64,000 bases of DNA from an uncultured Thiotrichales bacterium (GCA_938042355.1 CALIRD010000099.1:6-64005); one strand, 5' to 3'. Positions 26,641 through 60,891 are shown, numbered from the stretch's first letter. Program-made: numbers and translations. Notes: a model not told the origin generated them from the sequence alone.

Positions 26641-26943
26641 TCAGGATGACAGGTCATGCAAGATGCGCTGCACCAGTTGTTCACGGCGTGCGGATTGCAG
26701 CGCTTGTAGAGTTTCATCGGCTTCGAAGTTTTCTATTTTGTCGCTACCGCCGAACCCGTGTTGTTCCGAGAGTTTTTCGTAAATATCCATTCGGTCTCTT
26801 AGTACTGAAATTTCCATCGCAAGACGAAGCACAACATCGACCACCTGATCCATGTTGGAAGTTGCAATGAACGTTGGTTTGGTGCGTTTGCTGTCGAGCA
26901 TCAAGTCAGCAACACTGTTGCTCGGGCTCTTATCATTACTCAT
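26641..26943 (-). CDS. Small protein 'A' (100 aa), member of a 4-copy paralogous family in this window; function unknown
   Basis: Its ATG overlaps the stop of the methyltransferase at 26940 (ATGA). Shares the core VVDVVLRLAMEISVLRDRMDIYEKLSEQHG...IENFEADE with the ORFs at 36354, 41947 and 60535. Confidence 0.6.
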   Translation of the reverse strand: MSNDKSPSNSVADLMLDSKRTKPTFIATSNMDQVVDVVLRLAMEISVLRDRMDIYEKLSEQHGFGGSDKIENFEADETLQALQSARREQLVQRILHDLSS

Positions 26944-28072: not shown

Positions 28073-29611
28073 TTAACTCATGCCCAGTTTAGGAATGAAA
28101 AGCGACTGTGTCGGTAACATAGTGGTTTTTTCCTCCGTAAATAATTCAATTGAGGCGTGTAAACCATCGCGACCCACGCCGGATTGTTTATAGCCACCAA
28201 ATGGCGCTCGCAGGTCCCTGGTCAGCGGTGTATTGACCCAGACGGTGCCGGCTTTGATCTCACGGCTGCATTTCATCACAGTAGGCAAGTCATTCGACCA
28301 GACATAGCTTACCAGTCCAAAGTCTGAATCGTTCGCGATAGTGATAGCTTCTTCGAGATCGCTGTACCTTTGCAGTGCTACAAATGGGCCAAATATTTCT
28401 TCCTGACAAACTCGTGAGCTATTGTCGGCCAGCACGGCAGTGGGTTCAAAATAGTAGCCGGATGAAAATCCATCAGCGGCTTTGCCGCCCACTAATATTT
28501 CTGCGCCTTCTGATTTTGCTATGTCAACATACGACAACACTTTTTCATAATGCGAGGCGAACGCGAGTGGTCCGACTTCTACATCGCTATCAAAAGGATT
28601 GCCGACTTTTACATTTGCCATACGCTGTGTAAATTTATCGATAAACTCATCGGCGATAGAGTCTTGCAGCAAGATTCTTGAGCCAGCGAGACATTGCTCG
28701 CCATTACCAGCAAGGATCGCTATCAGTGAGCCGTCAATAGCGTCATCGAGATTAGCATCTGCGGTAACAATATTGGCGGATTTTCCACCAAGCTCCATGC
28801 CCACTTTTTTCAGGGTTTTGGAGGCAGATGACATAATGGTTTTACCGGTACCGGTGCCGCCAACAAATCCAATCACGTCGACGTCAGGGTGTTCTACCAA
28901 CGATTGTCCGGTGATGTGGCCACGACCATTGACGAGGTTTACCACGCCCGGTGGAATGCCCGCATCATTAATTATCTCTACAAATCTTTGCAGGGTATAT
29001 GGCGAGTATTCAGAGGCTTTGATTACAACCGTGTTACCGGTAGCCAACGCCGCAGCCAGTTTCATTGATACCAGCACAGTTGGAGCATTCCACGGGGTTA
29101 GCAGGGCACATACGCCTACCGGTTCATGCGTCACAATGGAAAGATAATTTCTGGTTTGTGTATAGGCTTCGCCTCCCAGGGTGCCAGCAACTTCAATAAA
29201 AAATTCAAAATTCTCTACCGTTCTTGGCATGTGCATGGCTTGTAAGCCAGCGACTGGAATACCGACCTCGAATGCCTGTATGGTCGCTAATTCCTGAGCA
29301 TGCTCGCGTATGGCGTCACGGGCTTTATAAAGTATGGCTTTCCTGTCGGTGTGGGACAGATATTGCCAGTCGGTGTGATCAAATGCATGTCGTGCAGCAG
29401 CAACTGCCGCATTGACCTCGCTTTCATCACTTTCTTGAACGGTATAGGTTTCTTCTGCGTTGATTGGACAGACTGACTGAAGTTTAAATGCTGTCGTGTC
29501 ATGTCCCTGCAAACTTCCGTCGATTATTGCCGTGACGGTGTCGGGTAATTGAATCTGGTGTTGGTCGGTGAGATCTTTGACATTGGGTATCTCAAACTGA
29601 TTGTCGGTCAT
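28073..29611 (-). CDS. Aldehyde dehydrogenase (NAD(P)+)
   Basis: ELGGKSANIV and GEQCLAGSRILL catalytic motifs in a 512-aa product. Confidence 0.9.
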   Translation of the reverse strand: MTDNQFEIPNVKDLTDQHQIQLPDTVTAIIDGSLQGHDTTAFKLQSVCPINAEETYTVQESDESEVNAAVAAARHAFDHTDWQYLSHTDRKAILYKARDAIREHAQELATIQAFEVGIPVAGLQAMHMPRTVENFEFFIEVAGTLGGEAYTQTRNYLSIVTHEPVGVCALLTPWNAPTVLVSMKLAAALATGNTVVIKASEYSPYTLQRFVEIINDAGIPPGVVNLVNGRGHITGQSLVEHPDVDVIGFVGGTGTGKTIMSSASKTLKKVGMELGGKSANIVTADANLDDAIDGSLIAILAGNGEQCLAGSRILLQDSIADEFIDKFTQRMANVKVGNPFDSDVEVGPLAFASHYEKVLSYVDIAKSEGAEILVGGKAADGFSSGYYFEPTAVLADNSSRVCQEEIFGPFVALQRYSDLEEAITIANDSDFGLVSYVWSNDLPTVMKCSREIKAGTVWVNTPLTRDLRAPFGGYKQSGVGRDGLHASIELFTEEKTTMLPTQSLFIPKLGMS

Positions 29612-29622
29612 GCCGGTATCCG

Positions 29623-30816
29623 TTATACGATTGCTGTAGCATCCGCCAGACTACTGTGCATTGACTGTTGTAGCAAATACTCTCTGCGTTTATCGGCGTT
29701 CTCATGCATCTCGCGCATCATGGCTAAGCGCATTTTTTGGCCTTGTTCTTCACCATGCTCTAGTATGGCTTTGTTCTGTTTGGTCTGTGCTTGGATGAAA
29801 TTATGGGTAATAGTTCGACGCTGTCGATCGTATAATTCAAATAACGCATCATCATGGCCATCTGTCAAGCAGGTGAGTATCTTGTCAGTCAGGTTCCAGG
29901 CATCATGAATGCCGCTGTTCATACCAAATCCACCCAGCGGGTTATTCAAGTGTGCTGCATCTCCCACCAAAAACACACGGCCGTGACTGAAGTTTTTAGC
30001 AACTCTTTGATGTACGCGGTAAATGGTTCGGTGTTCAGTTTCAACTGAGCTGTCATTAATCAAGCGATCAAATACACCTTCCTTATACGTGTCTGACAAC
30101 AAATGTTCATCATTATCAGACTCTTTTGCTGGCACCAGGATGCGCCAAACGCTGGGTACCCGAAGCAACACCATCCATTCGCTGGGATCAGATACATAAT
30201 TTACGTAAGCAATGTCGGGTATAAAATCCGCTAATTCCTTTTTGGTGGACAGACATAGGAATTTCTCAGGATAGGTGAAGCCTTCGAACTCAACTCCAAG
30301 CCACTTGCGCACAGTTGAGCTGCCGCCATCCGCAGCGATCAAATAATCCGCTTTAAGTGTGGTGATATCGATGCCCGTTTCAAATGAAGCGGTCACACCA
30401 TTTTCTTGTTGTTCAAAATGAACCAGTCGATGATCGAACAATACTTCAGCATTTTCATGTGCATCCAGTTTTCCGGCTACCAGTGATGCCATAACATGCT
30501 GTTCACATTGAACGCGGTAAGGAAATTCGGTGACGTCATCAATTTCAGCCAGGTCAAATTCCAGTATTTCACCAGTACTGCGTTCACGAAAATGATACAG
30601 AGGTGCAACCAGTCCTCTCTCTATGATCTCTTCCACCAAGCCGACTTCATGCAGCATTTCTAAAGTAGGGGAATGAAAGGTAGAGGCGCGAAGATCTTGG
30701 GCACAATTCATCCCCGCTTCACAAAGAGTCACTTTAACGCCGGCAAGCGCCAGACGATAGGCAGCAAGGGTTCCAACAGGACCTCCTCCGACAACAATGA
30801 CGTGCTTGTTCTTCAA
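29623..30816 (-). CDS. FAD-dependent aromatic-ring monooxygenase (UbiH/salicylate-hydroxylase family)
   Basis: N-terminal VIVVGGGPVGTLAAYRLALAG (GxGxxG) and LVGDAAHLNNPLGGFGMNSGIHDAWNL (DG/GD motifs). TTG start. Confidence 0.85.
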   Translation of the reverse strand: MKNKHVIVVGGGPVGTLAAYRLALAGVKVTLCEAGMNCAQDLRASTFHSPTLEMLHEVGLVEEIIERGLVAPLYHFRERSTGEILEFDLAEIDDVTEFPYRVQCEQHVMASLVAGKLDAHENAEVLFDHRLVHFEQQENGVTASFETGIDITTLKADYLIAADGGSSTVRKWLGVEFEGFTYPEKFLCLSTKKELADFIPDIAYVNYVSDPSEWMVLLRVPSVWRILVPAKESDNDEHLLSDTYKEGVFDRLINDSSVETEHRTIYRVHQRVAKNFSHGRVFLVGDAAHLNNPLGGFGMNSGIHDAWNLTDKILTCLTDGHDDALFELYDRQRRTITHNFIQAQTKQNKAILEHGEEQGQKMRLAMMREMHENADKRREYLLQQSMHSSLADATAIV

Positions 30817-30989: not shown

Positions 30990-31658
30990 ATGATGACGAA
31001 AGAAAAATTAACCGTGCGAATACATGAGCTACTGGCGGGTCATGATTTTACAACGGTGCTGCCAGAAGCTAAAAGTACTGAGTTGAAAAAGACTCTGGAT
31101 GAGCTAATTCCATTCTCGCCTGTACCTGACCCAATGGACAACCAGCATGCAGCAGAGGGTGTATGGGAGTGTAATTACGCCAACTTCGGGGTTAAGCATG
31201 CTGCTGAGCAACCGATGTTACACAGGTCAAGTCTGGCTAAACAAAGCTGGAATAATTTACCCAATATTCCGGCTGATATGATTGATATCCGGCAGGAAAT
31301 CCTCGTTAGTACCAAGGCCTACAACAATGTCGTAAAGTTACGTAGTACAACGTCTGATTGTGAAGCTGTGGTAGTGCTCTACGGGACTTATTCGGGTGAT
31401 GATGACAATCGTACTCGATACTCGGTTGCATTCTCGGAGGTTTCACTGGAGCCCATGAACGGTGACAGTGAGGCTGAGCTCCGTAGCGGCTTCGGTATTG
31501 ATGACGATGTGCCACTTCGTACCACGTTTAACCCGCCAAAACTTCATTCAGATATTGTTTATGTAGATGACAGGCTAAGAATCAACTATGGCAGTCTTGG
31601 CGGGTATTATGTCAATACCAAAATTGATGAAGCTGGATATTCGATAGACTACCAATGA
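30990..31658 (+). CDS. Hypothetical protein (222 aa)
   Basis: Clean ORF immediately upstream of the IclR gene. No recognisable motif. Confidence 0.45.
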   Translation: MMTKEKLTVRIHELLAGHDFTTVLPEAKSTELKKTLDELIPFSPVPDPMDNQHAAEGVWECNYANFGVKHAAEQPMLHRSSLAKQSWNNLPNIPADMIDIRQEILVSTKAYNNVVKLRSTTSDCEAVVVLYGTYSGDDDNRTRYSVAFSEVSLEPMNGDSEAELRSGFGIDDDVPLRTTFNPPKLHSDIVYVDDRLRINYGSLGGYYVNTKIDEAGYSIDYQ

Positions 31659-31667
31659 GGTCATCTG

Positions 31668-32489
31668 GTGCCAACTGATCCGGAAGCTCGCTCGGAGTTA
31701 ACCATACGAGCATTAAGCAGAGGCTTGCGATTGCTTTCTGTATTGAATTCTCGAGGTGAAGCCAGTCTGGCTGACCTTGCTAAAGAAACAGGTTTGCCCA
31801 GACCCACAGCTTATCGTTTGCTGCAGAGTTTACTAGCAGAAAATTACATAACCAAAGATGAGGCGTTAAGTACCTACCATCCTGCACCGCGCTGCTGTTC
31901 ATTGAGTAGCGGTTTCATGGAAGATGCCTGGTTACTGGAGCACACACAAGAAGATTTAAACAAGCTGGGTGATGAGTTGATCTGGCCAATTTCTATAGCG
32001 ACTAATGCAGGCACACGCATGATCGTTCGCAAAAACACAGATATTGAAAGCCCTCTGGCAGTACGTAAATTTATGCCTGGTACCTCTCTGGCTTTGCTTG
32101 AAAGTGCTTCCGGAAAACTTTTTCTGGCCAAATGCACTGCTGCCCGCAGAGCAAAATTGCTGAATATTATTTCGGCATCTTCCGATCCGATGCTCAAGAC
32201 GGAAAGCGATCGCGCCAGACTTGAGAAGCTGCTTGATAAAATTCGGTTAGATGGTTATGCCACCCATACGAAACCTGGTAAATACAGTGAAGCACGAGCG
32301 ATTGCTGTGCCAATTAAAGTAGAAAAAAAAGTAATCGCCACGTTAACCATTAGATATGCCAAAACTGCAGTCAGCAACAAGCGCGCTGAAAAAGAATTTT
32401 TACCTTTGATGTTTGAAACAGCGCGCAAGATTGGCGTAAAAATTAGTGCTGACCAGCGGGCGCTGCCTGCGTTTGGATTGGGTGAGTGA
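31668..32489 (+). CDS. IclR-family transcriptional regulator
   Basis: HTH ASLADLAKETGLPRPTAYRLLQSL followed by an IclR effector domain. GTG start. Confidence 0.8.
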   Translation: MPTDPEARSELTIRALSRGLRLLSVLNSRGEASLADLAKETGLPRPTAYRLLQSLLAENYITKDEALSTYHPAPRCCSLSSGFMEDAWLLEHTQEDLNKLGDELIWPISIATNAGTRMIVRKNTDIESPLAVRKFMPGTSLALLESASGKLFLAKCTAARRAKLLNIISASSDPMLKTESDRARLEKLLDKIRLDGYATHTKPGKYSEARAIAVPIKVEKKVIATLTIRYAKTAVSNKRAEKEFLPLMFETARKIGVKISADQRALPAFGLGE

Positions 32490-32496
32490 GGGTGGG

Positions 32497-33681
32497 TTAT
32501 TTGGCATTCTTCAGCACCAGATTGACCAGAATTGAATCATCAAAACTCATGCTAACCTGGCCAGTTCTCACGATAACCAAGTCTTGAGACGGAACAATAT
32601 AGACACGTTGTCCGCCAAAGCCATCAAAGAATACAACATCATCAGCCAGGTAAGGCGCACTATGAGTCACCGCAATTGCAGTGTTAGGTCCATATTCGCG
32701 GCTGCCATCTTCTGGCGCATCAAGCCACACACCCAGTCCGTACAAACGATTTGATTCAGCTGGTGTGGTGAGTATCTTAATGGCTTCTGAAGGCACGACT
32801 TGCTTTCCGTATAATTGCCCTTCATTTTTTATCAGCAGACCAATTTTCAGCCAGTCACCCGCACTGGCTTGCATGCCTGCATAAAATCGCGGAATGCCAT
32901 TGTCCTGACCACTCGAAAGCCAGGCATCTCCAGCACCAATTGGTCGCCAGATTTTTTCAGATAAATACTCGGCATAACTTGTATTGAAGGCTTGGTCTAT
33001 ATATCGGCGAATGACTGCACCGGCAACCTGATAGTTGATAGTGGCATATTCAAAGCCCAGTCCAGCATCATCGACAGGATTTGAAAGCGCTGCTTCTTCA
33101 ATGTCATCACCAATCAAAATCTCCATGGTGCGGAAGTCAGGATTAGCCATTGATACAACTTCAAGCGGGGTGGTGTGTTGCAACAGCTCCCTGAGCGTTA
33201 TTTCACCGCGGACATCCTCTTTCCATTCAACCAGTACTTTTGAGACTGGATCATCCAAGGCTAGAATTCCTTCAGCATGCAATGTTGCCGCCATCAGGCC
33301 GGTGATGGATTTGTTCATGGAGTAGGAAGCTGTAACCGCATTACGATCCATGCCATCGGCATAATGTTCAAATTGGATCTTGCCATTTTTCCAGACCAAC
33401 AGGCTGAGTCCATTTTCCTGATCGTGATAATCAATCAGGCTGATTTTTGTTGCTTCGCTTAATTCTGGCGTTTCTGCCACTAATAACTTTGAGTCGTCAA
33501 GATTTCCTGCTACTGGAGTTACCGTGGTTTCCCATTCGCGAACATTATCTGTTCGCATGTTACCCATGTTGGCCAGATTGCTAACCATGGTCCAGTTCAT
33601 TGCGGAAAAAATGGCAATAGCAATAATAGCCAGTAGCAGCAGCACAAAGATGATTTTCACGATTTTTTTAAAGAATTTCAT
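32497..33681 (-). CDS. Beta-lactamase-fold serine hydrolase (esterase/peptidase), N-terminal membrane anchor
   Basis: SxxK motif SMNKS, plus a C-terminal PYLADDVVFFDGFGGQRVYIVPSQDLVIVRTG shared with the next gene. Confidence 0.8.
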   Translation of the reverse strand: MKFFKKIVKIIFVLLLLAIIAIAIFSAMNWTMVSNLANMGNMRTDNVREWETTVTPVAGNLDDSKLLVAETPELSEATKISLIDYHDQENGLSLLVWKNGKIQFEHYADGMDRNAVTASYSMNKSITGLMAATLHAEGILALDDPVSKVLVEWKEDVRGEITLRELLQHTTPLEVVSMANPDFRTMEILIGDDIEEAALSNPVDDAGLGFEYATINYQVAGAVIRRYIDQAFNTSYAEYLSEKIWRPIGAGDAWLSSGQDNGIPRFYAGMQASAGDWLKIGLLIKNEGQLYGKQVVPSEAIKILTTPAESNRLYGLGVWLDAPEDGSREYGPNTAIAVTHSAPYLADDVVFFDGFGGQRVYIVPSQDLVIVRTGQVSMSFDDSILVNLVLKNAK

Positions 33682-33694
33682 AGTTGAATGGTTT

Positions 33695-34948
33695 TCAATT
33701 CAAACCGCGTAGTATGGTGTTAGGCAGATAGCTGTTATCCCATTCTGGCTCACTCCTCGCTCGGCCAAGTGCTGTTCGAAGAATGACTAGTTCTTTTGAT
33801 GGAATAATGTAAACCACCTGATTTCTATTGCCATCAAATAACACAAGATCATCGGCCAGGTAGGGTTCACTATGATAGACCTTGAGATTGTCTGGTATGG
33901 AATCTGGATTGGCGTAACCTCGTCTCTCAATGTACGGTTGACCGATGTAAATTCCCATACCGCTATGTTTGTTATTAGGGCTTGGTGAGCTGATTCGTTC
34001 TACATAGCCTTCCGGTAAGATTCTTGTGCCCTCCCAAATACCATCCTGCATAACCAGAATTGCCAGCCTCAAATAGGTTTCTGCAGGAAGTAATATGCAA
34101 CAACCCGAGTGTGCAGTTCCACCTGGTCGGTTAACAAAAACCTTACCACCTTGAGCTCCCAACGGTTTGAACAGCTCGTCGCTTAACCAGTTATGGTAAC
34201 GCTGGCTGGTAGCACGTTCCAGAATTAAGGCAACTATTTCGCCGTTAGCATTCGAGTACTCATATCGTGATCCTGGTTCATCTACCAGAGGGTACTCATG
34301 CAATATAACTTCAGTATGTCGTGGATGCAGGTAGGCACGATTTAAAATATCATCTGCGGTTGTGGCCAGCGCCTGTGGCAACAAGCCACTACTCATATTA
34401 AGAAAATGATTGAGTTGAATTTTGCTTTTGTTGGTGTTTTTCCATTCAGGCAAATGATTGGTAACCGGAATATTCAAGTTTTTGATGAAGCCTTTATTAA
34501 TTGCGGTACCCACAGCAGCGACCGATACGGGCTTGGCCAGCGAGTAGGAGGTTATCAATGAGTCGGCAGTAATGTCGCCAAAGTATTTTTCAGCGACAAT
34601 TTCTCCTTTATGCCAGACAATCAATGCCGAAGAATTATTTACTTCAGCATAATTAAAGGCATTTTCCATGGCTGGTTGTGATATCGAGGTGCTGTTGAGG
34701 TTACGTGGGAGCGGCTGATAGTCACTCGTGCCAGAAACAGGCTCGAGATTATCATAGGGAGGGACGTTGCCAGTAGTTCTGATTGCTTCGGCTAGTGCAT
34801 TAAAGCGTTCTAAATATTTGGCTTCGTCAGCAGCGCTGAAAGGAGGTTTGTTTGGGTCATTAACCGGAGTACTGTTGCAGGCGGCTAGTAAAGTGAAAGC
34901 AACAATTATCAGACATAAGGCGACGCTTGGAATTTCAGTCTTGTTCAT
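33695..34948 (-). CDS. Beta-lactamase-fold serine hydrolase, lipoprotein (tandem paralog of the previous gene)
   Basis: Lipobox LLAACNS. SxxK motif SLAKP. C-terminal PYLADDLVLFDGNRNQVVYIIPSKELVILRT nearly identical in pattern to the gene at 32497. RBS AGGAGCCC. Confidence 0.8.
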   Translation of the reverse strand: MNKTEIPSVALCLIIVAFTLLAACNSTPVNDPNKPPFSAADEAKYLERFNALAEAIRTTGNVPPYDNLEPVSGTSDYQPLPRNLNSTSISQPAMENAFNYAEVNNSSALIVWHKGEIVAEKYFGDITADSLITSYSLAKPVSVAAVGTAINKGFIKNLNIPVTNHLPEWKNTNKSKIQLNHFLNMSSGLLPQALATTADDILNRAYLHPRHTEVILHEYPLVDEPGSRYEYSNANGEIVALILERATSQRYHNWLSDELFKPLGAQGGKVFVNRPGGTAHSGCCILLPAETYLRLAILVMQDGIWEGTRILPEGYVERISSPSPNNKHSGMGIYIGQPYIERRGYANPDSIPDNLKVYHSEPYLADDLVLFDGNRNQVVYIIPSKELVILRTALGRARSEPEWDNSYLPNTILRGLN

Positions 34949-35126
34949 GTCGGGCTCCTGATGAAGATGTATTGAATAATAATCCAGATTGTAGCAGTTT
35001 CAATGTTTCGTCTGGCGGTCTGTTTTGCTAATTTTTCAGAATGAATTAACCGCGGTAACTTAAGTAAATTACACTTCTTATAATGTCTAGAATTACTTAT
35101 ACAACATACTGTGGGAGAACAAACAG

Positions 35127-36329
35127 GTGCTGAACATATTCCAACAAGCCGAGCACGCTATGCTGCCAAAGATGACAGCTGCAGAACGCTCGCGACAAGA
35201 ATTCGCCAAGTCATTCAAGCAACATATACAGGCTAATTTTCTGCCGGCAGTGACGTCGGCATATTTCAAGCGTGCTGTCCCGGCTTATGCTGAAGAAAAA
35301 GGTGAGGCGCCTACTGATTACCGAGAAGCGAGAACAGCCTTTCAAGATGATCCTTTATTTCAATTTTATTTATCTTCGCAACGCGTAAGTCAGGAGTTAA
35401 TGTGGTTCGGAGTGAACGAATCGATTACCCGGCAACTGGATGAGTTGAAACAACAGGCGGAACAATTACCGGCTACCGGCGGCACACTGGAAATCGATGA
35501 TGATTTCACGGTACCTAAATATGTTTCATCTCTGGATATACACTGCATGCCTGGTGGCTATGTAGGTAAGGATGGAAGTGACCCGCTTCATGCAGGTGCG
35601 CTGTATGATCGTGGTGTCTACTTATATGCGATGGGGTATATGGGGCCTAACAATGATGATATGGGTCGCTCCGTATGTAATTACATAACCCGTAACCTCC
35701 TTGATTTCAAACCAATGAAAATTCTGGATATTGGTTGCACTGTTGGGCATTCAACCTTGCCTTATGCCGAGCTGTTTCCCAACGCAGAGGTTACTGCAAT
35801 TGATGTCGCAGGTTCTTGTGTAACCTATGCACATTACCGGGCAGAAGCGATGGGCTTACCTGTGCATTTCAAGCAGAGAAATGCCGAAGCTACCGGTTTT
35901 GAAGATGAGAGCTTTGATCTGGTTGTCTCACATATACTTCTGCATGAAACATCAAAAAAGGCGATGCCTAAAATCTTCAATGAGTGTCATCGTATATTGA
36001 AACCAGGCGGCTACATGATTCATGCCGATCTGCCACCATTCGAAAATATGGATGCCTATACACAGCTGATACTGGATAACGAAACCTGGTACAACAATGA
36101 GCCATTCTGGAGTGCAATGAGAGAAATGGATCAGATTGAATTGGCGAAAAAAGCCGGCTTTGCAGAAGAAGATATATTCTTTGATACCGCAGGTATGGCC
36201 ATCATGGAACAAGCCAGACAGGCTGAGCTGGATGTGGCTGATGCGGTTGAAGAACTCGGAGAGCGAGAGTTTACTGCTGGTGAGTATGCTCCTGGCGGAG
36301 GCTGGGAAGTACTGGTCGGTAAGAAATGA
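35127..36329 (+). CDS. Class-I SAM-dependent methyltransferase with long N-terminal extension (paralog MT2)
   Basis: KILDIGCTVGHST. TAIDVAG. HFKQRNAEATGFEDESFDLVVSHILLHE. RILKPGG. NNEPFW. N-terminal MPGGYVG. GTG start at 35127, or alternatively ATG at ~35160. Confidence 0.8.
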   Translation: MLNIFQQAEHAMLPKMTAAERSRQEFAKSFKQHIQANFLPAVTSAYFKRAVPAYAEEKGEAPTDYREARTAFQDDPLFQFYLSSQRVSQELMWFGVNESITRQLDELKQQAEQLPATGGTLEIDDDFTVPKYVSSLDIHCMPGGYVGKDGSDPLHAGALYDRGVYLYAMGYMGPNNDDMGRSVCNYITRNLLDFKPMKILDIGCTVGHSTLPYAELFPNAEVTAIDVAGSCVTYAHYRAEAMGLPVHFKQRNAEATGFEDESFDLVVSHILLHETSKKAMPKIFNECHRILKPGGYMIHADLPPFENMDAYTQLILDNETWYNNEPFWSAMREMDQIELAKKAGFAEEDIFFDTAGMAIMEQARQAELDVADAVEELGEREFTAGEYAPGGGWEVLVGKK

Positions 36330-36353
36330 AAGCAGCGCAACTAGAGAATTAAT

Positions 36354-36695
36354 ATGCGAACGGAAAATATAATCAAGGGCAAGCGTCCTGAAATGTTTGA
36401 TTCACCTGGTGTTGATTACCTGATTCACATGGTGATGGTACTCACACAGGAGCTAAGTGTGGCGAATGACCAGATGGACACTTTAAAGCGTCTACTGATT
36501 GAAAAAGAGGTCTTGAATGCCGATGAGTTGGAGCGCTATAGCCCTGATCAGACTACACTGGAAGAACGAGAAACTCGACGCCAAAGCATGCTGGACACTT
36601 TGTTTTCTGTGATTTACCAGGAGGCTGCTGAAATAGAGCGTAAAGACAGTAAGCAAAAATTTCACCAAACTATCAAAGATATCGCCAGTGAGTAA
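36354..36695 (+). CDS. Small protein 'B' (113 aa), paralog of A, C and D; function unknown
   Basis: Core YLIHMVMVLTQELSVANDQMDTLKRLLIEKEVLNADELERYSPD. Lies 24 nt downstream of MT2 and 34 nt upstream of the monooxygenase. Confidence 0.6.
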   Translation: MRTENIIKGKRPEMFDSPGVDYLIHMVMVLTQELSVANDQMDTLKRLLIEKEVLNADELERYSPDQTTLEERETRRQSMLDTLFSVIYQEAAEIERKDSKQKFHQTIKDIASE

Positions 36696-36729
36696 ATCCG
36701 GTGTCGTAACTGATATTGGGATTGACTGA

Positions 36730-37923
36730 ATGAGTAAAAAAGATGAATTGCCAATCGCAATCATCGGAGCGGGGATTGGTGGACTGACTCTTGCTTTGGC
36801 GCTACTCAAGCAAAACAAGAGTGTGCGCTTGTTTGAGAAGGTTTCACGATTTGCACAAATAGGTGCGGGTCTCTCCCTGGCTCCGAACTGTGCGAAGGTA
36901 TTGCAGCGTCTTGGTGTGTTAAAAAATATTGCGCCATTAGCTGATACACCCGAATCAGGTTTTATCCTGCTCGGTGATAGTGGAGAGCAAATTCACAATA
37001 CGCCTTTTTCCAAAATCGAATCGATTTTTGGTTACCCGTACTATCAAATCCATCGTGCGCGCTGTCACCAGTTACTGGTAGATGAGGTTTTAGCGCATGA
37101 CCCTGATTGTATTGAAATGAACGCCGAGCTCCTTGCGATTGATCAGTCTGGTGAGCAAATCTGTCTGGATTTCATTCACCAGAGAAAGCAACGAGTGGCC
37201 TGTGTGATTGGTTGTGATGGGGTCAGATCAGCAGTTCGGAAATTGTATTTTGACGAAACCGCGCCTCTTTTTACTGGCTATGTGGCATGGCGAGCGTTAG
37301 TGCCTATGAACGATATTGACGCTACCTATCAGCAGCCAGTCTCTTTTGTAAATCTCATGCATCAGCGCCAACTTGTTCATTATCCAATAAATCTTGGGCA
37401 GTATCTGAATGTAGCGGCTTTCGCAGAACAGGACTGGCAAATTGAAAGTTGGACAGAACCGGCAGATATAGAGGAAATGCATAGTGTTTACAGTGATTTC
37501 AGGCCCTCGGTACATGAATTGATTGACGCAATTGACCCGGAACACTGTTTCAAGTGGGCCTTATATGATCGGGATCCTATCGATCATTGGAGTAAAGAAA
37601 AAGTGGTCTTGATGGGGGATGCTGCTCATCCGATGTTACCTTACTTGGGGCAGGGCGCCGCCATGGCAATTGAAGATGCCTGGTATCTGTCACAAGCGAT
37701 TGCAATCTACGATGACTACGAAACGGCTTTCTCTGCTTTCCAGCGAGCAAGAAAAACCCGTACCGATTGGGTTCTGCAAGAATCTCGTGCCGCAGGTCAG
37801 CGATTTGCCACCGAGAAGCCTTCTGCTGAAACCTATGCTGATGATAAAGCGATGTCGACCAAGGTGATGTTTGGCTTTGACCCGATTGCAGAATGCGAGC
37901 AGGCTTACTCTAGCGCTGCCTGA
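36730..37923 (+). CDS. FAD-dependent monooxygenase (salicylate-hydroxylase-like)
   Basis: IAIIGAGIGGLTLALALLK and LMGDAAHPMLPYLGQGAAMAIEDAWYL. Confidence 0.85.
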   Translation: MSKKDELPIAIIGAGIGGLTLALALLKQNKSVRLFEKVSRFAQIGAGLSLAPNCAKVLQRLGVLKNIAPLADTPESGFILLGDSGEQIHNTPFSKIESIFGYPYYQIHRARCHQLLVDEVLAHDPDCIEMNAELLAIDQSGEQICLDFIHQRKQRVACVIGCDGVRSAVRKLYFDETAPLFTGYVAWRALVPMNDIDATYQQPVSFVNLMHQRQLVHYPINLGQYLNVAAFAEQDWQIESWTEPADIEEMHSVYSDFRPSVHELIDAIDPEHCFKWALYDRDPIDHWSKEKVVLMGDAAHPMLPYLGQGAAMAIEDAWYLSQAIAIYDDYETAFSAFQRARKTRTDWVLQESRAAGQRFATEKPSAETYADDKAMSTKVMFGFDPIAECEQAYSSAA

Positions 37924-39325
37924 TACTTTTTTTGCCAAACCAGGCAACCAGAAAAGCACAGACAAAGGGTATCACTCTCTCAGCAAAATCCCCGGGGGCA
38001 TCCGGCGCCATATAGAAACCGATTGCCAACACAAAGCCGACACAAATTGAGGCTGTTTTTATACCAGTTGGCAAGCTGTAACCTGCCAGACGCAGTGCAA
38101 CGACCGGACCAAATGCTGCACCCAATGCAGTCCAGGCAAACAATGCACGGCTGAAAATGGCTTCCGGTGCCAGCAAGGTAATGAGAGTGGCGGCGAACAC
38201 CATCACGATCACAGCGTATCTGGACAGGGTTAGAGGTGAGAGTTTCAAGCGTTCATTGAGCTTCAGGTCGTGACTCAAGACCGAAGCGCTTACCAACAAC
38301 TGACTATCAGCCGTGGACATAATCGCTGACAAGATGGCCGCAATAATGATGCCACCAATCACCGGATGGAATAGTTCGGTTGTCAGAATAAAAAATATGT
38401 TTTCGGGGTTGTCATAATTTGACTGCATCGCGATCCCGGAAAGGCCGACTATGAATATGCCAAGCTGGACCACCAGAAACCACGCTACCGTAATTTTTCT
38501 ACCTTGCCGTATGGCAGCGTCATCCCGTATTGCCATGAACCTGACCAGCATATGGGGTTGCCCCAAGGGGCCCAGGCAGACCGCCAGATTGCCGACAATC
38601 ACGCCCATTGCCATGAGTCCAAAAGCTTGCCCGGTCAGGTGCAGTTGTTCGCTGGAAGCCACTTGCTGGAGTGAATGCAGTAGCTCAATCGGTCCTCCAA
38701 TATGGATTAAAGCAGCAATGGGTAACGCGAGCGCGGCAAATGCCATGATGATACCTTGGACAGCATCCGTAACGCTGACCGCCCAGAACCCTCCAAGCAT
38801 GGTATAGATGGCAATAATAACCGCTCCAATGATGACCCCTTGAGCGACCGGCATATTGAACGAGGTAGAAAATAAATTCCCAGCGCCTTGAAATTGAGCG
38901 GCAACATACAGTGCAAACGAAATCAGAATAACCACGGCGCAAATGCCGGCTAATAATTTTCTGCTCTGGCCTTTGCTTTCATGACAAATAAAATCTACCA
39001 GCGTTAAGTCGTTTTGTTCCAGTGACACTTTACGTAACTTTGGCGCCACCCAGAACCAGGCGATTAACATACCAAAAAAACTTCCCAGCAAGAGCCAGAT
39101 AGCTGATATGCCGATCAATACAACAATTCCGCTAAAACCAAGTAATTGCCATGCCGATGACGAGCTGGCGGAATAGCTTAAGGCGCTGACAAATGGGCCC
39201 AGTTTTCTTCCACCAAGAAAGAAATCCTGTTGATCGCTCACTCGTTTTTGTGCCCAAAACCCAATAAACAAGAGCAGTGCTTTATAGGCGATCAGGACGA
39301 TCAATATGGAATTGGCTTGATTCAT
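37910..39325 (-). CDS. Sodium:solute symporter (SSS family) transporter
   Basis: 13-TM pattern. N-terminal FFLGGRKLGPFVSALSYSASSSSAWQLLGFSG is typical of SSS. Confidence 0.85.
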   Translation of the reverse strand: MNQANSILIVLIAYKALLLFIGFWAQKRVSDQQDFFLGGRKLGPFVSALSYSASSSSAWQLLGFSGIVVLIGISAIWLLLGSFFGMLIAWFWVAPKLRKVSLEQNDLTLVDFICHESKGQSRKLLAGICAVVILISFALYVAAQFQGAGNLFSTSFNMPVAQGVIIGAVIIAIYTMLGGFWAVSVTDAVQGIIMAFAALALPIAALIHIGGPIELLHSLQQVASSEQLHLTGQAFGLMAMGVIVGNLAVCLGPLGQPHMLVRFMAIRDDAAIRQGRKITVAWFLVVQLGIFIVGLSGIAMQSNYDNPENIFFILTTELFHPVIGGIIIAAILSAIMSTADSQLLVSASVLSHDLKLNERLKLSPLTLSRYAVIVMVFAATLITLLAPEAIFSRALFAWTALGAAFGPVVALRLAGYSLPTGIKTASICVGFVLAIGFYMAPDAPGDFAERVIPFVCAFLVAWFGKKSIRQR

Positions 39326-39555: not shown

Positions 39556-40902
39556 ATGGAGAAAGTCTCACAAAAAATCCGACTGAGCTGGGGCAGTGGT
39601 GCCTTGGGCGTGGCCATCTTAATGAATGTGATCGCCTTCGTGGTGGTCTTTTTTATGGTTCAAGTTCTTGGCTTAAATCCAGCACTTGCGGGAGCCTTGG
39701 TGTTTATCTCCAAAGTGGTCGATATTATTACTGACCCTATAGTTGGGCGTTGGAGTGATCAATACAAAACGAGTGGGAGTAGACGGCGACCGTTTATGTT
39801 GTACGGCGCTTTTATATCTGCAATATCTTTTGCGATGATTTTTACTACTCCAGAATTTGGTAATCAATGGATTACCGCTAGTTACATGCTGTTAGCGCTG
39901 ATCATATACACATTGGGTTATACACTTTTTAATCTGACCTACTTGTGTATGCCAGCAGAAATGACAGACGACTATCATGAGAGAACGGAGATTCATGGCT
40001 ATCGTATGTACTTTGTTGCTGTTGGTGGTTTGTTAGCTCAAGCAGGTGTACCTCCATTACAACAATGGTTAGGTGCAGATAAGGCCGAGACGTACGTGGT
40101 TATTGGGGTGGTCGGTGGTGTAGTTATCCTCGCTTCAATGCTGAGTGCGTATTACGGCACTGCTAAAGCCAAATTCACTACTGCAGCGATAGAGAAAACT
40201 GACTTTATCAAGGAATATTCTCACGTCCTTAAAAACCGGCATTTTCTAAGGGTGTTAGGTATCAAGGCATCGCAACTTTTTGGTGTTGCGGCGATTTCAG
40301 TCTCTACTTTGTTTTTCTTTAAAGATTTACTGCAGGCGAGTTTGAATATACTGGCGTTTGTGGGTGTTGTGTCATTTCTATTTACCGTCGCGAGTGTTCC
40401 TTTATTGGTTAGACTCTCCAAAAGAATTGGTAAGGCGCAAACCTATGCAGTAGCAGGATCATTATACGTATGCTCGGCATTGAGCTGGGTGTTTGCACAG
40501 GCTGGTGAGCCTACCTGGGCAATACTCATCCGGTACGCCGTAACCGGTATCTCTGTTAGTGGCAACATTGTTATGGCAATGTCGATGCTGACTGATTGTA
40601 TAGAATATGATGCTCGCAAGTCAGGCATTAGACGTGAAGGGGCATACACAGCCTTGTATACGTTTACTGAAAAATTCACTTTTGCACTAGGACCATTGGT
40701 GTTTGGTGTTGCACTGTCAATGGCGGGGTACAGTGGTGATTTGGCGCCAGAAATGACACAAACACCGGAAATACGTCAGGCGTTATTATTGGGTATGTCT
40801 TATATCCCGGCAGCAATGGGCGCTTTAGCAATCTATTTATTGCTAGGCTATAAACTAACGAAGGAAGAATTGGACAAAGCAGGAGATAGTCTTGAAGAAT
40901 AA
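39556..40902 (+). CDS. MFS/GPH-family (MelB-like) cation symporter
   Basis: 12 TM helices with the GPH-type motif DIITDPIVGRWSDQYKTSGSRRRPFMLYGA. Confidence 0.85.
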   Translation: MEKVSQKIRLSWGSGALGVAILMNVIAFVVVFFMVQVLGLNPALAGALVFISKVVDIITDPIVGRWSDQYKTSGSRRRPFMLYGAFISAISFAMIFTTPEFGNQWITASYMLLALIIYTLGYTLFNLTYLCMPAEMTDDYHERTEIHGYRMYFVAVGGLLAQAGVPPLQQWLGADKAETYVVIGVVGGVVILASMLSAYYGTAKAKFTTAAIEKTDFIKEYSHVLKNRHFLRVLGIKASQLFGVAAISVSTLFFFKDLLQASLNILAFVGVVSFLFTVASVPLLVRLSKRIGKAQTYAVAGSLYVCSALSWVFAQAGEPTWAILIRYAVTGISVSGNIVMAMSMLTDCIEYDARKSGIRREGAYTALYTFTEKFTFALGPLVFGVALSMAGYSGDLAPEMTQTPEIRQALLLGMSYIPAAMGALAIYLLLGYKLTKEELDKAGDSLEE

Positions 40903-41950
40903 AATACCAGCAGCTAACTTGAATCAACGAGGGCGTGCTTCATTTGATTTTTTAGGTCACATGTTTCATGGCACCCACAAAATTCGTACGGCTGCCAGCG
41001 AGTATGTTGAAAACGAATTTGGTGATGGCAGTGAATTGCCGGAGGACCTGGATCAGCGTGTAAAAACCGTCTCTGAATTTGCGTATCAATTACCTGCTGC
41101 CAGGATCCGTCGTACAGTCGGTGAGTGGCATGCCAGTAACCACGGTCAAATAGCGATAGAAGCTTTTGAGGAGCTCGGAGAGGATTTTGCCAAGGATCTT
41201 CATCAGTATGACGAGGGCAGCAGCAGCCTGACGCTGGATGATGATTATGATGTGCCTGCCTATTGGGACGGTGTTGAGTTTCATCGAACCAGTGGCGGTT
41301 GGGACGGACATCAATACATGGGCTTTATTCACGGTGAGCTCGTGCATAAAAAAATGGTAGATGTCATTTACCCGGGCGGCATTTTCAAACAGCGCTGTGA
41401 GGTCGCCAAGCTGGCGCCGCAGAATGAGTATGAAAAAATTCTAGAGATGGGTACCTCGACTGGTCATTTCACCCTGGGTTTGGCATTGGCCTATCCTGAG
41501 GCAAAAATCACCGGCGTTGATCTTTCAAGACGGGCGCTGGAGCATACGCTGCGAGTTGGTAACGCTAATGACTATGCCTGGGATCTCTACCGCAGACCGG
41601 CCGAAGCGACTGGGTTTGATGACAGCAGCTTTGATCTTGTGGCGTCTTATATTTTATTACATGAGTTGCCCGTGCAATCCATTAAAGACGTATTTAGTGA
41701 AGCCTACAGAGTACTCAAGCCAGGTGGAGATATGCTCATGAGTGATGTGGTTCGTTATGCAGAGATGAACAAACTGCAGGTGTCTCTTGCGGATGAAGAT
41801 GCCAGCTATGGTGGTGAGCCATTCTGGCGTGAGTCTGCCAGTGCAGATCTGGCGGCGATCGCCGAAGAAGTTGGTTTTACTGATGTCAAAATCACAAACC
41901 TGGGCACAGGTCCTTATCCGCACGTTGTTCTTGGAACCAAGCCATCATGA
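40892..41950 (+). CDS. Class-I SAM-dependent methyltransferase with N-terminal extension (paralog MT3)
   Basis: KILEMGTSTGHFT. TGVDLS. AEATGFDDSSFDLVASYILLHE. RVLKPGG. GGEPFW. N-terminal SGGWDG. The TTG start lies 6 nt after an AGGAG RBS and overlaps the stop of the upstream transporter. Confidence 0.75.
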   Translation: MKNKIPAANLNQRGRASFDFLGHMFHGTHKIRTAASEYVENEFGDGSELPEDLDQRVKTVSEFAYQLPAARIRRTVGEWHASNHGQIAIEAFEELGEDFAKDLHQYDEGSSSLTLDDDYDVPAYWDGVEFHRTSGGWDGHQYMGFIHGELVHKKMVDVIYPGGIFKQRCEVAKLAPQNEYEKILEMGTSTGHFTLGLALAYPEAKITGVDLSRRALEHTLRVGNANDYAWDLYRRPAEATGFDDSSFDLVASYILLHELPVQSIKDVFSEAYRVLKPGGDMLMSDVVRYAEMNKLQVSLADEDASYGGEPFWRESASADLAAIAEEVGFTDVKITNLGTGPYPHVVLGTKPS

Positions 41951-42225
41951 GTTCTGACCCAAAAAGCTTTAACAATCCGGGTACACCGACGCTGAACGCC
42001 CAGGACAGCGCAGGTCTAGGGCAGGCAGTGCTGACGCTAACCCACGAATTATGGATCGTGATCGATCGTGTACATGCTCTAGAGGCCGTGCTGAAAAAGC
42101 ACGGTATGAATGTCAGTGAAGAAATCGAAAATTATATGCCGAGTGATGCCGATAAAGCACAGCTTGATGAGCGTGGTAAACAGTTGGTAGAAAGAGTGAC
42201 CGAAGCCTTAGCCCACAGTAGTTAA
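41947..42225 (+). CDS. Small protein 'C' (92 aa), paralog of A, B and D; function unknown
   Basis: Its ATG overlaps the MT3 stop (ATGA at 41947-41950). Core AVLTLTHELWIVIDRVHALEAVLKKHGMNVSEEIENYMPSD. Confidence 0.6.
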   Translation: MSSDPKSFNNPGTPTLNAQDSAGLGQAVLTLTHELWIVIDRVHALEAVLKKHGMNVSEEIENYMPSDADKAQLDERGKQLVERVTEALAHSS

Positions 42226-42229
42226 AGCG

Positions 42230-43051
42230 ATGATGAATATTGAGCGGCAGTTTGTAAGACTGGATGAAGGCTCGGTACACCTGAGAACCGCTGGTGAACG
42301 AACTGATCAGAAACCATTGCTGATGCTGCATGCTTCTCCTGCATGTTCTCGTTCACTTGAGCCATTAATACACCATCTTGCAAGCTCTCGTTATGTTATT
42401 GCTCCAGATACTTTGGGCTGCGGTGATTCAGCTGCACCAGCTGAAGTTTCGCCCAATCTCGAGTACTACGCCAACAGCATGAGCCGCCTCTTGGATGCCA
42501 TGAGTATTGATAGTGTAGACGTCTATGGCACACATACAGGCTCACACATTGGCATTGAATTAGCGTTAGCAGAATCAAGGCGCGTGCACTCACTGACAAT
42601 GGATGGAGTTGCGTTACTATCGCAAGAAGATCGAGAGGATTTTCTTGAAAACTACGCACCACATAAAAAGCCTGATGAGTACGGTGGCCAATTTAATTGG
42701 GCCTGGCATTACATACGAGATCAGATGGTGTTTTTTCCACATTACCGCAAAGACGAAAAGCACAAGCGAGTAGGTGGTTCTTTCGATACAGACTATCTGC
42801 ATGAATTAACGCTTGATTTACTCAAAAATATTGAGCACTACCACAAGACCTATGAGGCCGTTTTCAGGCATCAGGTACTTGAGCGCATCAAAGACGTGAA
42901 GCAGAAAATCCTGTTATTAACGGATACTGAAGACGTCCTCGCTGGCGCCGTGCCAGCATTGAAAGCTGCTAACCCTGGTATTGAAGTGCGGGTCGTGGAA
43001 GAGGGGCATGCTCAGGCGGCTGAGTTCATCAACGCTATTAGTGCCGAATAA
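42230..43051 (+). CDS. Alpha/beta-hydrolase-fold protein
   Basis: 273 aa. Begins 4 nt after small protein C. Motifs HASPACS and YGTHTGSHIG fit the alpha/beta-hydrolase pattern, but the nucleophile elbow is atypical. Confidence 0.6.
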   Translation: MMNIERQFVRLDEGSVHLRTAGERTDQKPLLMLHASPACSRSLEPLIHHLASSRYVIAPDTLGCGDSAAPAEVSPNLEYYANSMSRLLDAMSIDSVDVYGTHTGSHIGIELALAESRRVHSLTMDGVALLSQEDREDFLENYAPHKKPDEYGGQFNWAWHYIRDQMVFFPHYRKDEKHKRVGGSFDTDYLHELTLDLLKNIEHYHKTYEAVFRHQVLERIKDVKQKILLLTDTEDVLAGAVPALKAANPGIEVRVVEEGHAQAAEFINAISAE

Positions 43052-43070: not shown

Positions 43071-43940
43071 TTACTTTATTTTTTTGACCCAACGATCTTC
43101 AAACTCCCAGACATCCGGGAAACCGATCAATTGGCAGAATTCTTTAAATTCGAATAAGTCCAGCGAAGGGTCGTTCGTTGTGCCCGTTTCTTTGAGCGTA
43201 CGCATTCCTTTTTCCATGGCTGCTAATGCCGAGAGCGAGTTAAGCGCGGGCCAGATGGCTAGCGCAAAGCCCAGTTCTTCTAGTTTCGTGTTGTTCAATA
43301 TCGGCGTAACGCCACCATTAGCCATGTTGACCATCATGGGTCTGTCTATAGCCTCACAGGCAGTCTTCATTTGTTCTTCCGTAGTCAGGGCTTCCAGAAA
43401 AATAATATCAGCACCCGCTTCGGAGTAGGCCTCGCAACGTTTTATGCTGGCATCAAAACCTTCTGTCTGGAGTGAATCTGTTCTGGCGATGATGAGTGTA
43501 TCTTCCGGGTTCTGGCGTGCCTCACAAGCGACTTGTACTTTATCGACCATTTCTTCTATTTCCACGACACCTCGATTCGGTGTGTGCCCGCACATTTTTG
43601 GAAAGGTTTGATCTTCAAGCTGTATACCAACCACGCCGGCTTCTTCGTAGCCACGTACCGTATGATGTACATTCAGCAGGCCGCCGTAACCTGTATCGGC
43701 ATCGGCGATCAATAGTCCATCAGAGCTTGAGGCGATGGTTCGCATGCGGTCGACCATTTGTGTATAGGTGGCTATGCCAGCGTCAGGAAGACCGTGGGCA
43801 GAGGCCATGTTCCAGAAACCACTGCCATACACCACATCAAATCCGACCTTGTTAGCCACTACGGCAGCCATCATGTCGGGTATGCCTGGTGCTGCGACAA
43901 AGCCTTCATCGAGTAGCGTGCGTAAATTCTTTTTGCTCAT
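43071..43940 (-). CDS. Isocitrate-lyase/PEP-mutase superfamily enzyme (methylisocitrate-lyase / oxaloacetate-decarboxylase-like, not a true PEP mutase)
   Basis: QLEDQTFPKMCGH (K-x-C-G-H) signature. The EDQ rather than EDK motif argues against PEP mutase. Confidence 0.8.
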   Translation of the reverse strand: MSKKNLRTLLDEGFVAAPGIPDMMAAVVANKVGFDVVYGSGFWNMASAHGLPDAGIATYTQMVDRMRTIASSSDGLLIADADTGYGGLLNVHHTVRGYEEAGVVGIQLEDQTFPKMCGHTPNRGVVEIEEMVDKVQVACEARQNPEDTLIIARTDSLQTEGFDASIKRCEAYSEAGADIIFLEALTTEEQMKTACEAIDRPMMVNMANGGVTPILNNTKLEELGFALAIWPALNSLSALAAMEKGMRTLKETGTTNDPSLDLFEFKEFCQLIGFPDVWEFEDRWVKKIK

Positions 43941-43943
43941 GGT

Positions 43944-54091: not shown

Positions 54092-54185
54092 TTTACATAC
54101 TCGATGTTCGTTGATTATAGTGAAACGATACAGGATGGCTCCGACAAGATCGAGAATCCTGATGACGAAATCCAGCAATGAATAT

Positions 54186-60538: not shown

Positions 60539-60873
60539 CTGTTGTCCGGGTTAAATGGCTTGCTTTTAAGGGGTTCAAAAATACGTTTCACATAAGATTC
60601 CAAAGCGGCATCGCGCGTTGCTTTAGCTTCCTCGTCCAACTCAATGTTTTTAAGATCGTCGCTGCTAATCAGATTCTTTTCTTGTAGTAGAGCTTCCAGA
60701 CGGTAGCGATGATCCCGTTCGGTCCACAGTTCAGCACCCAGCGTAACAATGGTTTCCATGAGCTGGTCAATAACGGGGTTGTCCAGAAAGCTTGGCTCGG
60801 AACCTTCAGGAGGTAACTTGATGGACGCTACCTGTTGCTCGGTTAACTCATCGTGTTGCTTAATGTCCGTCAT
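60535..60873 (-). CDS. Small protein 'D' (112 aa from ATG), paralog of A, B and C; function unknown
   Basis: Core LMETIVTLGAELWTERDHRYRLEALLQEKNLISSDDLKNIELDE. ATG at 60873 preferred (the track starts one codon earlier at a GTG). Lies 18 nt downstream of the PhyH gene. Confidence 0.6.
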   Translation of the reverse strand: MTDIKQHDELTEQQVASIKLPPEGSEPSFLDNPVIDQLMETIVTLGAELWTERDHRYRLEALLQEKNLISSDDLKNIELDEEAKATRDAALESYVKRIFEPLKSKPFNPDNS

Positions 60874-60891
60874 CACACTTACTCTTGATTA

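Follow-up and report, generated by a model that had tools for sequence, protein, structure and literature searches.

A conserved gene pair of a class I methyltransferase and a small helical protein, with a flavin hydroxylase as facultative companion, in an uncultured Thiotrichales bacterium

In a 64,000-nucleotide stretch of DNA from an uncultured Thiotrichales bacterium (GCA_938042355.1 CALIRD010000099.1:6-64005; hereafter, the window), positions 35,127 to 37,923 hold a three-gene operon (termed here operon 2) that encodes, head to tail and in the same direction, a class I S-adenosylmethionine (SAM)-dependent methyltransferase (MT2), a small protein of an uncharacterised family (small protein B) and a class A flavoprotein monooxygenase (FMO2). 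The conserved unit in this operon is the pair of methyltransferase (MT) and small protein, which occur together far beyond chance adjacency, and the hydroxylase is a facultative, locus-specific companion that belongs to no single subfamily and lies outside the core of the module. On balance, we lean toward reading MT2 and small protein B as a two-subunit small-molecule MT module, employed here in an operon that would serve the catabolism of a hydroxylated aromatic or heteroaromatic acid.

Evidence for the pair comes from two samples of homologous loci. A genome scan with the MT alignment, restricted to one genome per species, yielded 300 relatives, of which the best 80 loci were used, a selection that is biased toward MT2 orthologs; neighbouring genes were labelled from six-frame open reading frames (ORFs) by phmmer searches with the proteins of the window plus a small number of further representatives, so that some spurious ORFs are included in high-GC genomes. 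These best 80 of the 300 loci carry MT2 orthologs with 59-90% identity, from both Gammaproteobacteria (a Thiotrichales metagenome-assembled genome, Aliiglaciecola, Halieaceae, Cellvibrionaceae and Arenicella) and Alphaproteobacteria (Caulobacter, Novosphingobium, Sphingomonas, Niveispirillum and Parasphingorhabdus), and in all 80 a small-protein homolog lies directly 3' of the MT2 ortholog. Across the window and 86 alpha- and gammaproteobacterial loci, a small gene on the same strand adjoins 97-98 of 100 MT genes, with the MT gene first in 90 pairs and the small gene first in seven. The start of the small gene overlaps the MT stop (spacing of -4 or -1) in 48 of the 90 pairs in which the MT gene comes first, all other gaps being 47 nucleotides (nt) or less, and the pairwise divergences of the two proteins are closely correlated (r = 0.94), a figure to which species phylogeny adds. 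The second, independent sample was built around the small protein, by searching metagenome contigs for a degenerate DNA motif that encodes V-x-RDRLDTLERL: all 20 loci recovered encode family members, and an MT gene is adjacent in each of the 18 that retain flanking DNA. This adjacency, together with the near-universal pairing in genomes, identifies the pair as the invariant unit, and an MT gene precedes even that of P0191, a remote homolog whose tail is basic. In the Thiotrichales metagenome-assembled genome (locus L001), the gene order is that of the window, i.e., FMO1, fibrillin-like protein, IclR, the two serine hydrolases (Bla2 and Bla1), MT2, small protein, FMO2 and SSS symporter. Carriers that can be cultured include Aliiglaciecola sp. 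3_MG-2023, Alteromonas sp. M12, Caulobacter endophyticus and Novosphingobium spp. A second MT subfamily is present in sphingomonads (L015, L033, L052, L066, L071, L073 and L079), where the small gene is located upstream of the MT gene and overlaps it, and where an MT2-type pair occurs in the same locus.

The association with the hydroxylase is looser. Of 94 pairs, 35 have a class A flavoprotein monooxygenase (FMO) gene within 5 kb and 11 have one within 300 nt, which we infer to be an enrichment over a random genomic neighbourhood, and the one-strand MT-small-FMO arrangement of operon 2 is found in L001, L031 and L063. An FMO is nevertheless absent from all 18 informative metagenome loci, as well as from one of the pairs within the window (MT3 and small protein C), and FMO2 shares only 23% identity (BLASTP) with FMO1, the hydroxylase of a second operon in the window, which NCBIfam assigns to a different subfamily. 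A sequence-only reading of this DNA had regarded the methyltransferase, small protein and hydroxylase as a functional unit, because the triad recurs in a different gene order, and had suggested looking for the triad in other genomes. The argument holds for the MT-small pair, with its near-universal pairing, overlapping start and stop codons and correlated divergence, but does not extend to the triad, which can be found elsewhere without being a conserved unit.

The same reading had called the hydroxylase UbiH-type, a label that its sequence does not bear out. FMO2 has an FAD_binding_3 domain (aa 7-325; 85.8 bits, cut-off 22) and, in its translation, the fingerprints GAGIGG, GCDGVRS and GDAAHPMLPYLGQG, and thus falls into class A; against the models for the UbiH/UbiF/VisC/COQ6 type, it reaches 60.3 bits where 224.65 are required (TIGR01988) and 51.9 where 392 are required (TIGR01984), and we rejected this assignment. 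Its nearest relatives of solved structure are NicC (185 bits), tropone 2-monooxygenase and the decarboxylating salicylate and vanillate hydroxylases, including decarboxylative vanillate 1-hydroxylase. Judged by sequence, FMO2 is a member, at the family level, of the group formed by NicC, salicylate hydroxylase and 3-hydroxybenzoate 6-hydroxylase, from which it differs in lying under every equivalog cut-off, including that of NF006021 (251.4 bits versus 459), which covers 3-hydroxybenzoate 6-monooxygenase and 6-hydroxynicotinate 3-monooxygenase.

MT2 combines a conventional catalytic core with an N-terminal region of its own. The core (aa 199-298) matches Methyltransf_25 (80.5 bits, cut-off 27, aa 199-295) and Methyltransf_11 (72.5 bits, cut-off 21.2), as is characteristic of a class I domain; SAM-binding motif I (ILDIGCTVGHST) is present, three paralogs and 32 family members all share G203, G207 and D226, and F263, D264 and L265 are invariant across the paralogs. 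Pfam recognises no domain before approximately aa 180, and the N-terminal ~190 aa, which are specific to the family, are likewise without a match in NCBIfam or among solved structures. In the AlphaFold2 model (predicted local distance difference test, pLDDT, 84.7; predicted template-modelling score, pTM, 0.85), this region forms long antiparallel helices (18-58 and 76-113) that precede the Rossmann core, and Foldseek aligns the model to many SAM-dependent MT structures with a probability of 1.00, as expected of a seven-stranded Rossmann-like fold. By sequence and model, the SAM-binding fold of MT2 is intact, and methyl transfer itself is predicted. The best matches to the core in PDB are small-molecule MTs (phosphoethanolamine N-MTs, RebM, NovO/CouO, MitM and JHAMT), at 15-21% identity and over the core only, and the closest PDB matches by sequence include LahSB, which methylates the C-terminal carboxyl group of peptides, and PKMT1/2, which are protein lysine MTs. 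Assignment as a UbiE/MenG C-methyltransferase was rejected (TIGR01934, 40.4 bits versus 158.35; NF001244, 34.8 versus 216), the Ubie_methyltran match in Pfam (32.7 bits) being limited to the generic SAM-binding core. The MT family has more than 2800 homologs; public annotation goes no further than 'class I SAM-dependent methyltransferase', and the defence-system library PADLOC matched only a generic methyltransferase domain (mad2).

Small protein B is the product of a real gene, as evident from a dN/dS of 0.06 between it and its L001 ortholog (i.e., strong purifying selection) and from a family that comprises at least 1299 clusters at 50% identity (profile search, E<=1e-3). Its AlphaFold2 model is all-helical (pLDDT 87.6), and the family has the consensus KGxRPxFFxDPxxDxLxxMVxxLAxExSVxRDRLDTxERL...IExYxPD...ER, in which E33 is invariant and P12, D21, R40 and R72 are nearly so. 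We obtained no significant match for this family in Pfam (including searches with 98 members), NCBIfam, PDB (by sequence or profile, and by Foldseek) or PADLOC. Two candidate identities failed in profile comparisons: UbiK/BMFP, since hhalign of the 98-sequence profile with E. coli UbiK gave a probability of 0.4% and BMFP/UbiK does not appear among the families listed for the 98 members, and a duplicated piece of the MT, for which the probability was 0.7%. Weak Pfam matches among the 98 members (PspB in six and NHase_beta_N in three) and a below-cut-off match of small protein C to DUF2018 were dismissed as noise. Some family members carry long, histone-H1-like tails rich in Lys, Ala, Pro and Arg (e.g., P0155, P0158, P0164, P0191, P0198, P0205, P0235 and P0257), whose composition suggests that they bind a polyanion, for instance DNA or acidic membranes; the small proteins of the window are without such tails.

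Searches with family hidden Markov models (HMMs) recovered four MT paralogs and four small-protein paralogs in the window, arranged as three adjacent pairs and one pair that is split by a LysR gene (Table 1). The sequence-only reading had recognised that the gene set recurs on the opposite strand, and FMO1, an aldehyde dehydrogenase (ALDH), MT1 and small protein A are indeed all encoded on the minus strand; its implied number of two copies, however, is too low. The paralogs have diverged considerably (29-34% identity among the MTs and 21-23% among the small proteins). Operon 1 runs in the order FMO1, ALDH, MT1, small protein A, alpha/beta hydrolase (abH1) and Amdase-like gene, and homologs of abH1 adjoin MT-small pairs in 42 loci. 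In the fourth copy, MT4 and small protein 4 stand 1.1 kb apart with the LysR gene between them, a layout that is kept in related metagenome contigs (L108-L110). A class A FMO belongs to the same operon at three of the four MT loci of the window, and serine hydrolases adjoin all three contiguous MT-small pairs.

Other enzyme classes are commoner neighbours of the pair than the hydroxylase. Within 5 kb, FAD-linked oxidases of the FAD_binding_4 type accompany 67 of the 94 pairs, serine hydrolases 59 and periplasmic DUF1838 proteins 49, and within 300 nt the respective numbers are 21, 26 and 37; MFS_2 transporters occur within 5 kb of 33 pairs and within 300 nt of two. Genes for PuuE-like, Amdase/maleate-isomerase-like and PrpB-like proteins, ALDHs, isochorismatases and cytochromes c also recur near pairs, and in Caulobacter, sphingomonads and Halieaceae the orthologs are surrounded by the gene set of the window in a rearranged order.

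The overlapping start and stop codons, the one-to-one count of paralogs, the co-divergence and the universal adjacency together argue that MT and small protein are two subunits of one enzyme. Catalysis would fall to MT2, as a class I SAM-dependent MT for small molecules with an N-terminal helical hairpin, and small protein B would be its dedicated, obligate, co-translated and non-catalytic partner, which probably docks on this hairpin and most likely serves stability, activity or substrate presentation. Because the core resembles small-molecule MTs and the surroundings are rich in transporters, hydroxylases, oxidases, ALDHs and hydrolases under IclR or LysR regulators, the acceptor most likely belongs, as a metabolite, to a pathway for aromatic or heteroaromatic acids. 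For operon 2, we envisage uptake of the compound through the PutP-like SSS symporter and its hydroxylation by FMO2, perhaps coupled to a decarboxylation that yields a hydroquinone-type product; the MT2-small protein B enzyme would methylate the substrate or an intermediate at a hydroxyl group, a ring nitrogen or a carboxylate, and the neighbouring serine hydrolases would form or cleave ester or amide bonds; a physical interaction of the two proteins, the catabolic direction, the substrate class and the site of methylation are what we infer in this scheme. Transient methylation, with the methyl group later hydrolysed or oxidised, is an attractive extension because the pair is often found with esterases and FAD-linked oxidases. 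In its most far-reaching form, the pair would represent an undescribed, widespread family of heteromeric MTs whose helical partner is needed for activity or delivery, with transient methylation activating or protecting hydroxylated aromatic or N-heteroaromatic acids during catabolism until the methyl group is removed or oxidised by co-clustered esterases, FAD-linked oxidases and flavin hydroxylases, a proposal that we put forward tentatively and consider rather unlikely.

Several points weigh against a catabolic two-subunit enzyme. The pair also occurs outside catabolic clusters, as in L092, where it stands beside an alternative oxidase, and in Sphingorhabdus (L081), where it is accompanied by DUF1838 and cell-wall genes. 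A simple subunit model leaves unexplained the Lys/Ala/Pro-rich tails, which are N- or C-terminal and present in approximately 11 of 149 representatives of the small family. We saw no natural fusion of MT and small protein and found no homolog of either that has been characterised, and a catabolic route that consumes SAM is unusual in energetic terms.

One alternative retains the hydroxylase as a full member: MT, small protein and flavin hydroxylase would form a three-part unit that acts on a hydrophobic phenolic or quinone substrate, with the small protein presenting this lipid-like compound, as in the ubiquinone metabolon, where SAM-dependent MTs (UbiE/UbiG) and class A flavin hydroxylases (UbiH/UbiI/UbiF) likewise combine with small helical accessory proteins (UbiJ and the coiled-coil UbiK). 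The class A FMOs at three of the four MT loci of the window, the FMOs near or adjacent to pairs elsewhere and the three loci with an MT-small-FMO arrangement are all consistent with such a unit, as are neighbours with a quinone or hydrophobic theme (the alternative oxidase of L092, a UbiD-family decarboxylase in L087, and, in the window, the fibrillin-like protein and an alkyl sulfatase bearing an SCP2 domain) and the basic tails of some small proteins, which could bind membranes. Yet the small family is not UbiK, both the MTs and FMO2 score far under the Ubi cut-offs, the hydroxylase is facultative (it is missing from the MT3-small protein C locus and from every informative metagenome locus), the FMOs that do occur are of different subfamilies and less common than other enzyme classes, and the context of transporters, ALDHs, hydrolases and an IclR regulator is catabolic; we therefore hold a three-part unit to be unlikely. 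It is quite improbable, in our estimation, that the small protein is instead the substrate of the MT, in a reversible protein-methylation switch with the serine hydrolases as methylesterases, analogous to the action of CheR and CheB on helical receptor segments. LahSB and PKMT1/2 among the closest PDB sequence matches, the invariant and nearly invariant residues of the small family, and the serine hydrolases that adjoin the contiguous window pairs and lie within 5 kb of 59 of the 94 pairs would all accommodate such a switch, but overlapping start and stop codons and one-to-one gene numbers are more what one expects of stoichiometric subunits than of an enzyme and its substrate, small-molecule MTs provide the closest structural matches, a known methyl-accepting motif is absent, and catabolic operons with transporters point to a metabolite as substrate.

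Tails rich in Lys, Ala and Pro typify proteins that bind DNA or polyanions, and the histone-H1-like tails of the small family could therefore mark a regulatory or nucleoid-associated factor (e.g., an anti-activator or a DNA-binding protein) that is separate from the enzyme and ties expression of the operon to MT or SAM status. We attach very little probability to this idea: neither a helix-turn-helix (HTH) or other DNA-binding domain nor any fold match was detected in the small protein, the window proteins lack the tails, IclR and LysR regulators are already present, and strict pairing with one enzyme family across diverse operons is better explained by a subunit. The substrate and regulatory readings each fit fewer observations than does the subunit reading. 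That the three genes are unrelated neighbours, or that the small ORF is not a gene, has a negligible chance of being correct. Although neither a sigma-70-like promoter nor a terminator was called for the plus-strand operon, the low dN/dS and the 1299 clusters attest to a gene, the pairing is kept across two proteobacterial classes and metagenomes, and more than half of the MT-first pairs have overlapping start and stop codons, so that chance adjacency is effectively refuted for the MT-small pair.

If MT2 and small protein B are indeed subunits of one enzyme, their closest known counterpart in working principle is the Trm112 system. Trm112 is a small non-catalytic partner that activates the class I MTs Trm9, Trm11, Mtq2 and Bud23. 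It is, however, a beta-rich zinc-knuckle protein that serves several RNA and protein MTs and is usually not encoded beside them, whereas the partner described here is all-helical, is matched one-to-one with its own MT paralog and is encoded in metabolic operons; with no Pfam match or match in any other family library, no Cys in small protein B and a family mean of 0.15 Cys per protein, identity with Trm112 was rejected. The small-molecule MTs to which the catalytic core is most similar in sequence and fold resemble MT2 over the Rossmann core alone; all of them lack the two-helix hairpin at the N-terminus as well as a partner gene of their own. Biotin synthesis offers a parallel to the frequent serine hydrolases, in that a carboxyl MT (BioC) is followed by a serine hydrolase (BioH) that later removes the methyl ester. 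The MTs of the window are nevertheless not BioC malonyl-ACP O-methyltransferases (TIGR02072, 54.0 bits for MT2 and 66.5 for MT1 versus 184.95), there is no acyl-carrier or fatty-acid-synthesis context, and carboxyl methylation is hypothetical here.

MT and small protein are among the most strictly linked gene pairs, yet neither the small family nor the N-terminal domain of the MT has a match in Pfam, NCBIfam or known structures. Should the small protein prove to be an obligate subunit, the pair would constitute a new type of partner-dependent MT, and thousands of genes now listed as 'hypothetical protein' and 'class I SAM-dependent methyltransferase' would gain an annotation; should the MT be an ordinary enzyme with a stabilising chaperone, the gain in annotation would be modest. 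With four copies in a single catabolic island, the substrates could reveal catabolic SAM-dependent methylation in marine and freshwater heterotrophs, and, if the methylation is transient as proposed, SAM-dependent methylation would be a recurring step of degradation and not of biosynthesis.

The ORF map and Pfam confirm the local architecture as it had been read from the sequence alone, namely a three-gene operon flanked upstream by two divergent serine hydrolases of the class C or family VIII esterase-like beta-lactamase fold and by a convergent SSS symporter gene whose 3' end overlaps that of FMO2 by 14 nt (37910-37923). Gaps of 24 nt and 34 nt precede small protein B and FMO2, respectively, and MT2 starts with GTG, 9 nt downstream of a GGGAG Shine-Dalgarno sequence. 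The MT2 gene and that of hydrolase 1 diverge from a 178-nt intergenic region, within which a perfect TATAAT (35079-35084, +) lies 43 nt 5' of the MT2 start. Since no -35 element is recognisable, this arrangement suggests a putative MT2 promoter that is activator-dependent; a consensus scan detected neither a sigma-70-like promoter on the plus strand nor a terminator within operon 2. The window contains no Rfam family and no tRNA, and operon 2 is thus without an upstream riboswitch. The IclR-family gene is a candidate regulator of the island, and the SSS symporter, although PutP-like, does not reach the PutP equivalog level (TIGR02121, 333 bits versus a cut-off of 515.5).

Table 1. Coordinates of operon 2, its paralogous copies and other features of the window.
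Feature	Position	Strand	Description
ORF	2955-3830	+	291 aa; Pfam- and NCBIfam-negative
ORF	23867-24877	+	336 aa; Pfam- and NCBIfam-negative
Alpha/beta hydrolase abH1	25664-26623	-	directly 3' of small protein A; Chlorophyllase and Hydrolase_4 matches
Small protein A	26641-26943	-	100 aa; start overlaps MT1 stop by 4 nt; 90 bits against small-family HMM
MT1	26940-28067	-	34% identity to MT2; 443 bits against MT-family HMM
ALDH of operon 1	28073-29611	-	
FMO1	29623-30816	-	class A, MhpA-like N-terminal type; FAD_binding_3 198.7 bits; first gene of operon 1
Fibrillin-like protein	30990-31658	+	222 aa
IclR-family regulator	31668-32489	+	HTH_IclR 54.2 bits, IclR_C 45.7 bits
Beta-lactamase-fold serine hydrolase 2	32497-33681	-	394 aa; PF00144 103.5 bits (cut-off 27); S-x-x-K is SMNK in translation
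Beta-lactamase-fold serine hydrolase 1	33695-34948	-	417 aa; PF00144 91.3 bits (cut-off 27); S-x-x-K is SLAK in translation
MT2	35127-36329	+	400 aa; class I SAM-dependent methyltransferase
Small protein B	36354-36695	+	113 aa; all-helical; uncharacterised family
FMO2	36730-37923	+	397 aa; class A flavoprotein monooxygenase
SSS symporter, PutP-like	37910-39325	-	471 aa; SSF (PF00474) 222.8 bits (cut-off 22.8)
MFS_2/GPH transporter	39556-40902		precedes MT3
MT3	40892-41950	+	29% identity to MT2; 359 bits against MT-family HMM
Small protein C	41947-42225	+	92 aa; start overlaps MT3 stop by 4 nt; 63.5 bits against small-family HMM
Alpha/beta hydrolase	42230-43051		follows small protein C
PrpB-like protein	43071-45344	-	PEP-mutase/isocitrate-lyase family
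Alkyl sulfatase, SdsA1-type	52148-54244	-	last gene of MT4 operon
Class A FMO	54186-55616		MT4 operon
Class A FMO	55626-56795		MT4 operon
FAD-linked oxidase	56798-58393		MT4 operon
MT4	58397-59446	-	208 bits against MT-family HMM; operon head
LysR-family gene	59627-60538	+	between MT4 and small protein 4
Small protein 4	60535-60876	-	113 aa; 66.8 bits against small-family HMM; follows PhyH dioxygenase gene
PhyH dioxygenase	60892-61809		

Several further genes of the window and its relatives deserve mention. The fibrillin-like protein has a weak, sub-threshold match to PAP_fibrillin (19 bits) and could be a binder of lipids or other hydrophobic ligands; its position is kept in L001, and weaker homologs are present in L032 and L045. 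The alkyl sulfatase that closes the MT4 operon consists of metallo-beta-lactamase, dimerisation and SCP2-like C-terminal domains. The PrpB-like protein, a member of the phosphoenolpyruvate (PEP)-mutase/isocitrate-lyase family, is encoded beside a flavocytochrome-c/TcuA-like FAD protein, and its lyase homologs recur near MT-small pairs in 15 loci. A role in phosphonate metabolism as a PEP mutase found no support for this gene, which scores 242 bits as a methylisocitrate lyase (below the cut-off) versus 108 as a PEP mutase. Nor did we find support for a nicotinate/maleamate or urate-like pathway, at which the NicC- and HpxO-like FMOs and the PuuE-, isochorismatase- and maleate-isomerase-like neighbours hint, as no equivalog cut-off was reached, or for a role like that of p-cresol methylhydroxylase (PCMH) for the FAD-linked oxidase, which scores equally against D-lactate dehydrogenases and PCMH/VAO enzymes.

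DUF1838, a family with a Tat signal that is not encoded in the window, is the commonest immediate neighbour of the MT2-ortholog pairs (e.g., L081:8789-9817, L082:11827-12864, L048:4730-5914 and 45 other loci); our literature search found no description of the MT-small pair, nor of the function of DUF1838. In marine metagenome contigs, the gene of an alternative oxidase (AOX, a quinol oxidase) lies directly 3' of the pair (L092:3451-5812, and also L089 and L091), and in L087 and L106 the pair is followed by genes for an Abhydrolase_5 protein, a UbiD-family decarboxylase and a CN-hydrolase.

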